From positions 96,001 through 160,000 of IMG/VR virus record IMGVR_UViG_3300031555_004524: a DNA stretch of 64,000 nt; one strand, 5' to 3'. This stretch comes from a virus (lineage: Duplodnaviria > Caudoviricetes). The notes below the pieces were generated by a model, which saw only the letters and a list, made by a program, of their open reading frames with translations, did not search any database and was not told the DNA's origin. The translations under genes were made by a program, and so were the position numbers. Positions 25,912 through 62,195 of this stretch are shown here, in pieces (the first letter of the stretch is position 1; each line of letters starts with the position of its first letter).

Positions 25912-26481
25912 TCACTCCTGTCCTGTTATGATAGTATAATGACTTTTCGGATATAAATACGACATAGGAATGTAATATATTAATCTTTCATCATATATAT
26001 CATCACAACCACCATTATTTATAATATATAGATCATCTAATGAAATTTCTGTTGGAATTGTAGCTGTAACTATTGTAGTATCCATTCTAAATTGCGGTTG
26101 AACGTGCTTCATAGATGCTCTTATAGTTTGTATTAGAAATGTATCGTATCTAGGATCATCTTTCAATTTCAGTGGATAGTTAGCAGTGATCATTTTAGGT
26201 TTAATATCCGCTAATGTCAGACTAATAGTCTTATCTGCATCGTATGTATCATCTGTTATTTTGGCAGAATCTTTAATAGCATTTAATACTAAATCTGAAT
26301 AGTGTTTATGACCATTTTTAGTTAATATTTGTACACCTGTATCACATTTCGATGCCATATCTTTATTTCCAGGCATAAATAATATGAATTCTATTTTTCT
26401 ATTTTTATCCTGTTTTTGTTTTTCACGCTGCTCTTTTTCGAATTCGCATCTCATTTCTTCTGCAAGTTCTAAATCATTCAT
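25912..26481 (-). CDS. Hypothetical protein
   Basis: 189-aa ORF, GAGAGG RBS. Confidence 0.75.
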   Translation of the reverse strand: MNDLELAEEMRCEFEKEQREKQKQDKNRKIEFILFMPGNKDMASKCDTGVQILTKNGHKHYSDLVLNAIKDSAKITDDTYDADKTISLTLADIKPKMITANYPLKLKDDPRYDTFLIQTIRASMKHVQPQFRMDTTIVTATIPTEISLDDLYIINNGGCDDIYDERLIYYIPMSYLYPKSHYTIITGQE

Positions 26482-58737: not shown

Positions 58738-59411
58738 CTCCTTCCTATTAATTTAAAATATTTTTCAAAATCAATATTATCTGAATATACAGATTTGAAT
58801 AAATAATCCCGTTTACAATCCAATGCAACTTTTTTACCTATTAATAGCTGATCTCTTGTAAATCGGTCTATATCACTATTACATTTCATAAGAAACATAG
58901 CAAAAGCCATATCTAAATTAATATGATTATCTCGCTGAAAATCATTCATAAATTTTTGAACATGGCGTTTATTATTACAATCTTTATGTCCATCTACATG
59001 GTAAAATCTAACGTTAATATTATAATACGTTATAATCTTTATACAATCTAAAAATATAGATTGATTGGCAACTTCCATTCCCGATGATGAATACATTTTT
59101 CCACTGCGTACATTTTTTATCCAATTTTTAATCCAATCATTTAATCCATTTACTGTAATTAATGAATCTGAAAATATATTTATATTTTTAACCTGTGGAA
59201 AATTTGCTGCATATAATAATGCCATTTTTATAGCATATACTTCTCCTTCATTATTAGTAGAATTTAATAAGCATTTAGATAAAGCATGACATGGTTCATT
59301 TCCATAATATGCTATATATCCAGGTGCAGAAAATATTCCATCTACTGAAGCATCTGTAAATATATTCAAAGTATCATAGGTAAATACCATACTTTTTTCT
59401 AATATTGGCAT
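58734..59411 (-). CDS. rnhA: Ribonuclease HI
   Basis: IFTDAS, TNNEGE, IFSDS, W...W, VANQ, HVDGH. Confidence 0.92.
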   Translation of the reverse strand: MPILEKSMVFTYDTLNIFTDASVDGIFSAPGYIAYYGNEPCHALSKCLLNSTNNEGEVYAIKMALLYAANFPQVKNINIFSDSLITVNGLNDWIKNWIKNVRSGKMYSSSGMEVANQSIFLDCIKIITYYNINVRFYHVDGHKDCNNKRHVQKFMNDFQRDNHINLDMAFAMFLMKCNSDIDRFTRDQLLIGKKVALDCKRDYLFKSVYSDNIDFEKYFKLIGRS

Positions 59412-59482
59412 ATAATCCTCCTTTTTATGATAAAATATCCAGGTATACTTTAAGTATACCTGGATAATATTTATTTATTACT

Positions 59483-60016
59483 TTAATATGTAATTTCTTC
59501 CCATCCGAATCTAGAAACTATTGTATCATCTGGTAAAGCTTTTGGTGAGAATGCAGTATATGAGAGTTCAATACCTTCATATTCATCTCTATTATCTCTT
59601 CTAATTTTTAATGTCCATCCAAACTGGAACCCTTTATCTGTTTTAACTACACATCTATTTGATGATACCTGAATGGACCAAAATGGATTTTCTCCACCAA
59701 TTTTCATTTCTGGAACATTCTGTGTGAATTGATTAATGATCATATTTTTGCAGTCATCTGCAGTTAACTGATCAAATTCAAGCCCAAATGATTCATAATC
59801 AAAAAACTGTTTAATTTCTGGACAAAGATTGTATAAATCTGTTAAGATATAATCCATATATACATTTCCTGAATTATCCATTTCGATATCTACAATATTT
59901 TTTCTGAATGTAGTTGGTTTGAATCTTTCCACTTTCTGAGGTTTTTTATTATATTTTTTACCTCCATCATTATTTCTTGTTCTGTTTTTAAATTCTTTCA
60001 TTGATTTTGTTGACAT
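59483..60016 (-). CDS. Hypothetical protein
   Basis: 177 aa, AAGGAG RBS, early promoter 60070. Confidence 0.75.
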   Translation of the reverse strand: MSTKSMKEFKNRTRNNDGGKKYNKKPQKVERFKPTTFRKNIVDIEMDNSGNVYMDYILTDLYNLCPEIKQFFDYESFGLEFDQLTADDCKNMIINQFTQNVPEMKIGGENPFWSIQVSSNRCVVKTDKGFQFGWTLKIRRDNRDEYEGIELSYTAFSPKALPDDTIVSRFGWEEITY

Positions 60017-60098
60017 AATGCGTTGCTCTCCTTTTAGACTATAGAATTATTTTATTATTAAGATATTATCATAAAAATAATATATAACTAAAACACAA

Positions 60099-60922
60099 AA
60101 TAACCAGGATAGAAATTAATCTATCCTGGTTATTGTATATAATAATATGAAGGATTATACCAATATCAAACATGGAATATATGATATCAGAAGGCAATAA
60201 TTTTTGATGTTTGATATATGCAGCTTCATAATATTATGTTGTATAAAATAATTGGAGATGTCCCTCTAGTAATAAAGTACTAGAGGGTTACAGTCATGAA
60301 AAAAAAATCATTTTTACTACCTACATATATAATTTGAAGTTATACCATGTAAATACTATCCGTCCTACTATAATGTTATTATATTTATTAAAAAATATTT
60401 TGTTAGGAAGTCACCTCTAGCAAAATATATGCTAGAGGTAAAACAAAAGGTATTGGGTCATAAAATGATAAAAAAGATATACAAAAATGATAGAAATCGG
60501 CGAGTGAGCGTCGATAATAATCATTCTAATTAATTGTTTATAATAGTGTAATAAAATACATGAGAAATCCCAGTAGTATTACACTACTGGGAAACTCATT
60601 AATCAAGGAAATTCTGCCAAAATTAAAACTGATTAACATGAAGATTTTAAAAAATGTCATTTTCAGGAGAAATAAAAATGATACTCTTTGCTATTTTATA
60701 AATCCATCTTACATATTATAGCTAGTAATAGTATATATCATACTATACTTATATTATTGTTACATATAATGTAATTTTTTACAAAAATAATCCCTAGTGG
60801 GCACGCAACCACTAGGGATTATTTGTTGTTTCCGTTGCACGCGTTATGGCAACAATCATGGAATTTTTAAATGATTAAATACACAAAAGAGAGGATTCAA
60901 AAATGAACCCTACTATATTGTT
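60099..60922 (-). ncRNA. Cluster of five candidate late small RNAs (tandem promoter-terminator cassettes)
   Basis: AACA-N6-TA at 60911-60922, 60750-60761, 60527-60538, 60366-60377, 60229-60240, each followed by a GC-rich hairpin (60786-60823, 60560-60599, 60413-60439, 60262-60287, 60099-60134); no ORF of 60 aa or more. Confidence 0.65.
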
Positions 60923-60948
60923 ATTTGTTTAAAATTATATAAAGTTTT

Positions 60949-61329
60949 TTATTTTCGAGCTACTTTATATTTTTCTGATAATGCAGCAATATCTACTTTA
61001 TGTATGCATGATTCATCTACAACAATAACAATTTCATCTTCTTCAAAAATACCATAATGCTCAATAACGTTATCAATAGCTTCTTCTATTGATATTATTT
61101 TTTGATCATTAATATATTTTTCTAAATTGTTAGAGTATTCAATTAAACATGGGGAATATTCATCTTCTCTATGAATATCTACTTTATCTACTGTATATCC
61201 CATAATCTGTTCTTGGTATTCAGTAATTTTTTCTAATTCATTAAATGCTATATGGTTTTTTGTTAATCCACGAATACCTAAACCATAATTAGCATCTGAT
61301 TCTAATAAAAAATTTATTGTGTTTGACAT
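60949..61329 (-). CDS. Hypothetical protein
   Basis: 126 aa, AAGGAGG RBS. Confidence 0.75.
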   Translation of the reverse strand: MSNTINFLLESDANYGLGIRGLTKNHIAFNELEKITEYQEQIMGYTVDKVDIHREDEYSPCLIEYSNNLEKYINDQKIISIEEAIDNVIEHYGIFEEDEIVIVVDESCIHKVDIAALSEKYKVARK

Positions 61330-61358
61330 GGCTAGTCAACCTCCTTTCTTCATTTATT

Positions 61359-62195
61359 CTAATGTTTATTTTTGTACTCATTAGAGGACTTTTCAGGTAG
61401 AGAAGCATATGATTTCTGTTTTAATTCAGAAATTCTTCTACATAGGACAGTCTCTATATCTTGCATTGTAGGTAAATTGTATAGGCCTCCCCCTGAGTCT
61501 CCAGGAAGCTGAATGGCTAATGGATTCATTTCTAATATAGAAAGCTCATACTTTTCATCAAACGTTAAAGTACGTTGTTTCATCTTTTCAATTTTATCCA
61601 TTACTTCCATAGGTATCCATTCTCCATACATTTCTATGAATCCTTCATAGTTACCCATCACTTTATCTAACGGAATAAATAGGTATTGTTGGTGAACTAA
61701 TTCGTGCACTGTTTCTGCTAATGGTATTATTCCTACTAATAAATAGTAATGAATATACATTACTTCTTTAGCTACTAATTCAACTTCAATACTTTCATGA
61801 TAGAATAATCTCTTTTCTATTACGGTAACTACTATATCATGTAGAGTAAAAGGAGAATGATGTAATTCTATTCTAATTTTGAAAGTATCTGTATTAGTAA
61901 CATTTTTTAAAAATGCACATTTATCCATACTCATATTTTCTCTTAAATAGTTCACAAATCGACGATATTCCCTAGAGCTCCGTATTACTCGTTTAATATC
62001 TTCGACATATTTTTTATAATCTTTTTCTTCATATATATCATAATCCTGCGTGTCATACTCAGGAAGATTATTTAATACTATTATATCGTTATAATACGTA
62101 TTATTTTGTAATTGATTGTTTTTGGGAATTTCAGGTAGATATGATTTACTATCTTCGATTTTAGTAAATAACCTGACAAGATTTTTATCACTCAA
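61359..62195 (-). CDS. HNH-like fold protein, paralogue of 50567-51277
   Basis: C...IELHH...IPLAETVHELVH; TTG start with GGAGGG RBS; late promoter 62223-62234. Confidence 0.65.
   Translation of the reverse strand: MSDKNLVRLFTKIEDSKSYLPEIPKNNQLQNNTYYNDIIVLNNLPEYDTQDYDIYEEKDYKKYVEDIKRVIRSSREYRRFVNYLRENMSMDKCAFLKNVTNTDTFKIRIELHHSPFTLHDIVVTVIEKRLFYHESIEVELVAKEVMYIHYYLLVGIIPLAETVHELVHQQYLFIPLDKVMGNYEGFIEMYGEWIPMEVMDKIEKMKQRTLTFDEKYELSILEMNPLAIQLPGDSGGGLYNLPTMQDIETVLCRRISELKQKSYASLPEKSSNEYKNKH

Follow-up and report, generated by a model that had tools for sequence, protein, structure and literature searches.

A gap of about 830 bp at positions 60,099 to 60,922 of a 64,000-nucleotide stretch of phage DNA (the window, whose numbering is used throughout) holds no open reading frame (ORF) of at least 60 amino acids and none with a credible ribosome site, and it resolves on the minus strand into head-to-tail promoter-hairpin units, as a preliminary description of this DNA had proposed. 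The units are here named U1 to U5 and their promoters P1 to P5, and together they are referred to as the array. The stretch is perhaps best read, with somewhat more than even confidence and from sequence comparison, as a row of late, phage-polymerase-specific non-coding transcription units in a fast-changing, positionally conserved locus.

The window corresponds to the reverse strand of positions 142434-206433 of a 248,162-bp IMG/VR virus record. The genome has a G+C content of 25-30%, and the array gap is among its largest ORF-free gaps. RNA polymerase (RNAP) pieces are encoded at several loci, two of them beta-like (Rpb2_6-like) and one beta'-like (Rpb1_2-like), and the products of the genes flanking the array share 30-40% identity with homologues in the Bacillus phages AR9/PBS1, Staphylococcus jumbo phages, Listeria phage LPJP1 and Yersinia phage phiR1-37; this uncultured phage was thus recognized as an AR9-like jumbo phage equipped with multisubunit RNA polymerases of its own. 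No DNA similarity of the window region to sequenced phages was found. Relatives were sought by IMG/VR, metagenome and protein look-ups, which yielded either identical contigs or lineages at 36-54% amino acid identity. ARAGORN called no tRNA gene in the window or in the whole 248-kb genome, and every match of the array to an Rfam covariance model was far below its gathering score, with no match to tRNA or tmRNA.

Promoters and hairpins of the array

A motif scan bore out the five exact minus-strand occurrences of AACA-N6-TA reported earlier, with the last bases given in Table 1; no plus-strand occurrence lies within the stretch. In AR9 the sequence AACA-(6N)-TA/G marks 94 mapped late starts, transcription proceeding from its last base (PMC5312081). 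Of the 328 AACA-N6-T(A/G) sites in the present genome, 85 fall in non-coding DNA, which makes up 9.7% of the genome (about 2.7-fold enrichment), and the majority of these are found 15-70 nt ahead of an ORF on the same strand. The assignment of the motif as the late promoter of this phage, read by the non-virion RNAP, is upheld by its enrichment in non-coding DNA, its proximity to genes and its match to the AR9 late consensus; the start positions are predicted ones.

The exact motif is scarce in the window, where 55 copies were found against 89 +/- 9 expected from shuffles, so that one strand of an 830-nt stretch should contain only about 0.36 copies. The intergenic density of the promoter motif in this phage is approximately 1.8 per kb per strand, by which five in 830 nt is a mild excess. 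The unusual feature of the array is the absence of genes between its promoters, rather than their number. A promoter matrix was derived from 54 gene-proximal late sites, which score 11.6 +/- 3.6 when each is left out in turn, as opposed to 5.8 +/- 3.7 for chance sites inside genes. By this measure P2 (12.9) and P4 (10.1) are gene-like, and P1 (8.2) and P3 (7.5) intermediate. P1 and P4 are similar over 17 nt (94%), and a repeat comparison found nothing else shared, in agreement with the earlier statement that the unit bodies are mutually unrelated.

A hairpin of 10-20 bp lies 105-183 nt downstream of each of the five promoters, and a terminator scan of 59000-62000 returned six sites where 0.5 were expected, a twelve-fold excess. 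The earlier claim that every unit ends in a strong hairpin with a U-rich tail held for the hairpins; the tail is present in U1 and U5, weaker in U2 (5 of 8 T) and missing from U3 and U4. Among the gene terminators of this phage, five or more T in the first 8 nt are the rule. Whole units fold better than shuffles, with z values of -3.5 to -6.5 owed to the terminal hairpins (U1, -4.66, hairpin-driven; U2, -4.13; U5, -6.49, most of it supplied by the terminator).

A stem-loop at nucleotides 1-3 is found in 6 of the 12 ORF-less late units of this genome, U1 and U2 included, compared to 11% of 56 late mRNA leaders; U4 has none. The same 5'-terminal stem-loop occurs in units of three related lineages (L005, L023 and L027) and at a mapped AR9 start, 207979. 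Such 5'-terminal stem-loops protect Bacillota RNAs from 5'-end-dependent decay. The ORF-less late-promoter-to-hairpin units outside the array number seven, at 11377(+), 23043(-), 64401(-), 177370(-), 193416(-), 195426(-) and 199014(+), those from 64401 onward being numbered on past the end of the window; the terminator and tail of unit 64401 (GGGATATCTCATG) resemble those of U2.

The transcribed strand of the stretch is T-rich (36-44%), with 12-20% C and 12-18% G, so that C is at or near G, unlike the sense strands of the genes of this phage (A 39%, G 18%, C 12%). Genes on the plus strand were considered and rejected: the plus-strand sequences that resemble ribosome sites head ORFs of only 7, 9 and 13 codons, and the plus strand lacks the late motif.

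Table 1. Features of the array and its two flanks (window positions).
Feature	Sequence	Position	Strand	Remarks
126-aa gene		60949..61329	-	conserved; anchors the locus in all relatives; own late promoter at 61355-61366
P1	AACAATATAGTA	60911..60922	-	exact motif; predicted start A 60911
U1		60783..60911	-	~129 nt; 5' stem-loop 60892-60911; terminator hairpin 60785-60824 with T tail
P2	AACAATAATATA	60750..60761	-	exact motif; predicted start A 60750
U2		60560..60750	-	~190 nt; 5' stem-loop; internal hairpin about 60649-60689; terminator hairpin 60568-60592, tail TTTCTCAT
P3	AACAATTAATTA	60527..60538	-	exact motif; predicted start A 60527
U3		60403..60527	-	~120 nt; hairpin 60411-60441 without U tail; 30-codon hydrophobic ORF 60432-60524
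P4	AACATTATAGTA	60366..60377	-	exact motif; predicted start A 60366; sequence copy of P1
U4		60248..60366	-	~105-120 nt; hairpin 60262-60287, then ACATCTCC, no U tail
P5	AACATAATATTA	60229..60240	-	exact core motif; doubtful promoter
U5 body		60092..60229	-	internal stem 60163-60180 / 60200-60217; canonical terminator 60099-60134 with T tail
Early promoter	TATATTATTTTTATG	60070..60084	-	exact early-consensus match; serves 177-aa gene 59483-60016; downstream edge of array

The same position in related phages

Homologues of the 126-aa gene that precedes the array occur in four other lineages, and in each the gene is followed by an ORF-free gap. In L023 and L024 (52% protein identity) the gaps are 519 and 412 nt long and the next gene encodes a 116-aa protein; in L005 (42%) a gap of 322 nt leads to an RNase H gene. 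L030 and L032 (39-41%) have gaps of about 220 nt ahead of a 253-aa gene and an RNase H gene, respectively, and in L027 (36%) only 160 nt separate the homologue from RNase H. The layout of L023 matches that of the window: a gene terminator is followed by one early- and two late-promoted units without ORFs, and these by an early promoter with a lineage-specific gene. Sequence counterparts of P1 and P3 are present even where the flanking protein is only 36-42% identical. In L005, a promoter matching P1 directly follows the stop codon of the homologue, there of 121 aa, and heads a predicted RNA of about 215 nt, which has a stem-loop at its 5' end and is closed by a long stem. The same 14 nt of P3, together with AATGATT, recur in L027 ahead of the RNase H gene.

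In AR9, a 560-bp gap past g242, which encodes the phrog_12252 homologue, contains the mapped late start 207979. This start, between g242 and g243, was entered under 'tRNA' in Table S3 of the AR9 transcription study (PMC5312081). It heads approximately 490 nt of unannotated, ORF-free and relatively G+C-rich DNA with several CU-rich stretches (L007:5611-6112, record 207967-208468), matches to which are restricted to the PBS1 group at 99% identity. The tRNA-Asn gene of AR9 (L007:6548-6621) lies 925 nt beyond 207979, behind a separate and very strong late start, 208874. The corresponding neighbourhood in Staphylococcus phage S6 likewise has a tRNA-Asn gene along with multi-hairpin ORF-free DNA. 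Across the relatives, the ORF-free gap at this spot spans 160-930 nt. Given the gaps in all lineages, the AR9 start and the tRNA-Asn of S6, the position appears to be a conserved home for RNA genes, the content of which is lineage-specific.

Two further observations were made at this position. In S6 (L021:5900-6100, minus strand), a tRNA-like sequence with acceptor- and T-arm-like pairings, not called by ARAGORN, lies right past tRNA-Asn and is followed in ORF-free DNA by at least three more hairpins. In three lineages with flanking proteins only 36-41% identical to that of the window, a conserved GACUUCUUUCA box is found 8-10 nt ahead of a G+C-rich hairpin (L027:4440-4500, L030:1930-1975 and L032:1245-1295); it belongs to the leader of the next gene, RNase H in the case of L027 and L032, and may be a cis-regulatory element.

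Probable small RNAs and the alternatives

The preliminary description had inferred a bank of five independently transcribed late small RNAs (sRNAs). The late motif, the lack of credible coding capacity, the syntenic AR9 start and the 5' stem-loops speak for such a bank; the independence of all five units and the structured nature of their bodies did not stand. As the array is read here, the short units would be transcribed late by the non-virion RNAP from AACA-N6-TA promoters. U1 and U2 are good sRNA candidates: their most likely products would be discrete RNAs, about 130 nt long for U1 and 190 nt for U2, with a protective 5' stem-loop and an intrinsic terminator; U3 and U4 are plausible ones that have credible promoters and may run on to the strong terminator of U5, giving nested RNAs. 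U5 is probably without an independent promoter, and would serve as a shared 3' end rather than as a fifth gene. Units would be gained, lost and swapped through recombination at promoter/terminator junctions.

A possible function for U1 and U2 is suggested by sequences that mirror the start sites of genes. The consensus ribosome-binding region of this phage consists of AGGAG (G-rich at -14 to -10), an A-rich spacer and AAAAAUGA, which includes the AUG. U1 contains UCAUUUUU at 60899-60906 followed by UCCUCUC at 60889-60895, and U2 contains UCAUUUUU followed by UUUCUCC (60666-60672), the latter in a 7-nt hairpin loop; these UCAUUUUU and CU-rich segments are the reverse complement of the consensus start region. 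Complementarity was assessed as duplex energy against 240 gene start regions (-20 to +10), with dinucleotide shuffles as controls. The mean duplex energy of U1 was -13.97 compared to -11.36 +/- 0.37 for shuffles (mean z about -7), and the top-five duplex energy of U2 was -23.3 compared to -19.4 +/- 0.9 (for the mean of U2, z was about -3.4), the duplexes of both landing on the UCAUUUUU and CU-rich segments. The zone within 30 nt of gene starts, comprising about 6% of the genome, takes in the top antisense match of U1 and many of the strongest ones of U2 and U3; the top genome-wide match of U1 is antisense to the start region of the gene at 25912-26481, and segment 68-91 of U2 has several genome-wide matches antisense to gene starts. 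By pairing with the start regions of phage or host messages, U1 and U2 would block the loading of ribosomes. Such silencing of ribosome sites is proposed for U1 and U2 only, and tentatively. Unit 64401 also carries a strong mirror signal (z about -7).

A number of observations weigh against the reading of the array as a row of sRNA genes, or against the proposed function. The matrix score of P5 (0.4) is lower than that of every gene-proximal late promoter; it is a score like that of chance sites, and a fifth independent unit is therefore doubtful. An early-type promoter for U5 was rejected for its poor fit to the early consensus. The hairpins of U3 and U4 are followed by CTTCCTAA and ACATCTCC, respectively, with 2-3 T in 8 and no U tract. 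With P5 chance-like and U3 and U4 devoid of U tails, the earlier count of five independent units was not sustained, and it is equally likely that transcripts read through and end, as a nested set, at the U5 terminator. The 5' hairpin of U1 has a T tail and may simply terminate transcription of the 126-aa gene; it could halt transcripts from P1 after about 30 nt. The internal stem quoted in the preliminary description is real, but extra structure in the unit bodies was rejected: minus their terminators, they fold no better than shuffles (z of -0.7 to -1.5). Nor can the bodies be aligned with the DNA of relatives, which are either identical or at 36-54% amino acid identity.

On the side of function, the complementarity of U3-U5 to start regions, by mean and by top five, shows no excess over shuffles, and the mirror signal is absent from the units of L023 and L005. 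As a trait of all ORF-less late units it was rejected, being present in U1, U2 and 64401, marginal in two and absent in eleven; with no excess in U3-U5 and most of the others, the signal is not a property of the class. Early genes were rejected as preferred targets, there being no preference over late genes. Anti-Shine-Dalgarno 4-mers show no more than a mild enrichment, with 11 found where 4.7 were expected (p about 0.02). The mirror sequences can also be read as leftover plus-strand ribosome sites before ORFs of 7 and 9 codons, and the element of U1 is largely buried in its 5' hairpin, whereas the UUUCUCC loop of U2 is exposed.

A last point against a purely non-coding array comes from L015, a metagenome contig of a sister strain. 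From 60539 downward it agrees with the window at 100% identity; its first 105 nt differ, the divergence point being the upstream edge of P3. The head of this contig supplies GGGAGG-ATG and a 54-codon frame that passes through P3 into the 30-codon ORF of U3. The product has a basic N-terminus and a hydrophobic C-terminus. No homologue of it was found among 5.8 billion clustered proteins or 1.84 billion representatives, and the ORF was rejected as a conserved protein; the novel head had no match in IMG/VR. Given that P3 and the first bases of U3 are non-coding before RNase H in L027, the 54-codon ORF is regarded as a strain-specific ORFan or a chance fusion. With this ORF in view, U3 is not cleanly non-coding as judged from its sequence. 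The 105 nt at the head (within L015:1-213) are absent from the present genome and hold the probable end of an early promoter, the GGGAGG and a perfect 16-nt palindrome, CATATGGATCCATATG.

The alternative that survives best, unlikely though it is judged to be, is that the array is a scar of gene shuffling: a hyperplastic region in which terminator-promoter junctions serve as recombination linkers and the unit bodies are remnants of small ORFan genes, with RNAs that have no function in trans. The replacement of L015 exactly at the P3 edge is of the kind that this explanation predicts, as is a difference between L023 and L024. These two have an identical 123-aa protein and identical unit bodies, and are distinguished by a 109-nt indel (L023:4575-4690, L024:4575-4590) that comprises exactly one late promoter plus hairpin, with a predicted RNA of about 50 nt, and is flanked by similar T-rich tails. 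Same-species contigs from several samples terminate within the array; L013 and L014, from one sample, break at 60619-60623, one of them with a 5-nt divergent tip. The gap length and the next gene vary by lineage (the 177-aa gene here, the 116-aa gene in L023, RNase H directly elsewhere), the promoter density of the array is near that of ordinary intergenic DNA, and its bodies lack excess structure; T4-type phages moreover provide a precedent in their PeSL cassettes (PMC2839356). On the other hand, a decayed gene would be expected to leave a ribosome site and ATG 20-60 nt past the start, and most units have neither, U4 having a weak one. The excess of 5'-terminal stem-loops and the compensatory changes between L023 and L024 in two terminator stems (in one unit terminator G-C to A-T, with loop TTTC versus GAAA) point to selection on the RNAs, and P1 and P3 are conserved in very distant lineages. 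Gene shuffling is in any case compatible with a row of late RNA genes, which can be the cargo of a shuffled region. A second mosaic junction lies 1 kb upstream of the array, where contig L009 (L009:1-600) of the same species matches the window without a difference up to 62029 and is unrelated beyond it, carrying genes of 106, 111 and 191 aa in place of the N-terminal part of a 278-aa gene.

It is improbable that the units are instead micro-protein genes, expressed from leaderless or nearly leaderless mRNAs as tiny hydrophobic peptides of 30 (U3), 24 (U5) and 40 aa (U2). The ORFs exist, beginning 3 nt past the predicted start in U3 and opening at the predicted +1 in U5, and T-rich strands encode helices rich in Phe, Leu and Ile; with L015, the U3 ORF is extended to a strong ribosome site and a basic N-terminus. 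However, a T-rich strand yields hydrophobic-looking ORFs by chance, the versions in the window have no ribosome sites, and the usual late gene of this phage has a leader of 15-70 nt and a strong ribosome site. The ORF of U2 passes its own terminator and ends within P3, and that of U5 would depend on the poor promoter P5. A PHROG search with eight small ORFs gave no significant match, the 54-aa product of L015, itself without homologue, being marginal to phrog_3772 (E = 0.037).

Slightly less probable again is a role in cis only, either as a multi-promoter structured leader for late read-through of the early 177-aa or RNase H genes, or as a bank of terminators insulating the late from the early block. 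Consistent with a leader are the tail-less hairpins of U3 and U4, the 5' untranslated regions of up to 491 nt reported for AR9, and, at the homologous position in L027, L030 and L032, a structured leader that immediately precedes the next gene, which is RNase H in L027 and L032. Against it, U5 places a 15-bp G+C-cored hairpin and T tract directly ahead of the early promoter of the 177-aa gene; because this gene has its own early promoter and the array lies between a late and an early gene, the array is not needed as its promoter. Insulation, for its part, needs just one terminator. An origin of replication primed by promoter-driven R-loops in AT-rich ORF-free DNA beside an RNase H gene, as at T4/T7 origins, is very improbable: the gap is among the largest, has several promoters and shows conserved RNase H linkage, but the promoters are of the late class, there are no iterons or repeats, and GC skew tracks gene orientation with no turning point at the array.

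Known counterparts and significance

The earlier statement that no equivalent had been described in this phage group was too strong, in view of an intergenic sRNA of phiR1-37 (PMC4848604) and the AR9 late start 207979. With such phage sRNAs and the syntenic AR9 late transcript already published, the kind of element is known; what is new here is the tandem bank of unrelated units read, as predicted, by the non-virion polymerase. The AR9 unit shares with the array the promoter consensus, the neighbourhood of a phrog_12252 homologue and RNase H, ORF-free DNA and a 5'-terminal stem-loop. It differs in being a single unit of about 490 nt rather than a row of short ones, and it has no sequence similarity to the window. 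The phiR1-37 RNA, misc_4, was detected by RNA-seq; it is an intergenic, ORF-free transcript of about 300 nt from a deoxyuridine (dU)-DNA jumbo phage in the same broad group (PMC4848604). Unlike the array, it stands alone, maps to a different locus and has been given no promoter class, and sequence similarity between the two is not expected.

The PeSL cassettes of T4-type phages combine an early sigma-70 promoter with a stem-loop in about 100 bp of similar sequence, and flank ORFan genes (PMC2839356). The array resembles them as a set of promoter-hairpin composites in a hypervariable region, with indel or replacement junctions in modules (the 109-nt L023/L024 indel and the P3 edge of L015). Its promoters are of the late AACA type, however, its units lack ORFs, and the similarity is confined to promoter cores of 12-17 nt; the array is an analogue of the PeSL cassettes and no member of them.

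Among bacteria, LhrC1-5 of Listeria, RsaE/RoxS and the streptococcal csRNAs are short Bacillota sRNAs with their own promoter and terminator, some in tandem, that bind ribosome-binding regions through CU-rich loops or single strands. They are sibling copies of one sequence, encoded on bacterial chromosomes, with validated targets. The units of the array, in contrast, are mutually unrelated, phage-encoded and predicted to be read by a phage RNAP, and the CU-rich motif is found in two of the five. The stable RNAs of the T4 tRNA region (species 1 and 2, rnaC/rnaD) are small, clustered with RNA genes and processed from one precursor. The clustering of RNA genes is a shared trait, AR9 and S6 having tRNA-Asn in the neighbourhood syntenic to the array; the present phage is without tRNA, and each array unit has its own predicted promoter.

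To our knowledge, phage-encoded small RNAs are scattered cases, none of which has a defined role in the AR9/PBS1 group, where the two unusual RNA polymerases are well studied and post-transcriptional control is not. If expressed, the units would show that the non-virion polymerase transcribes RNA genes besides late protein genes, and that one conserved genomic spot is a nursery for such RNAs, some of which may shut off translation at ribosome-binding sites. A broader proposal is that AR9-like jumbo phages keep a cassette-shuffled late sRNA locus with integron-like gain and loss of RNAs, in which those of the U1/U2 type broadly silence early phage or host translation; taken as a whole, this is speculative and rather improbable. 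T4 RegB cleaves early mRNAs at ribosome sites, and broad silencing by RNAs of the U1/U2 type would, if true, be its RNA-based counterpart. AR9 itself has an overlooked, experimentally mapped ORF-free late transcript, and as AR9 can be grown and manipulated, the idea is testable.

At the downstream edge of the array, the region of the early promoter is 85% conserved over 39 nt with L023/L024. The early consensus of this phage, derived from 36 gene-proximal sites, is TATATTAT-N4-RTGA and unlike the late motif; it may also be written WTWRTATATTAT-N4-RTGA, is related to the AAATATATATTAT-N6-G of AR9, and has copies at 484, 3049, 9041, 11303, 22840, 43969, 44142 and 60070 (minus strand) of the window.

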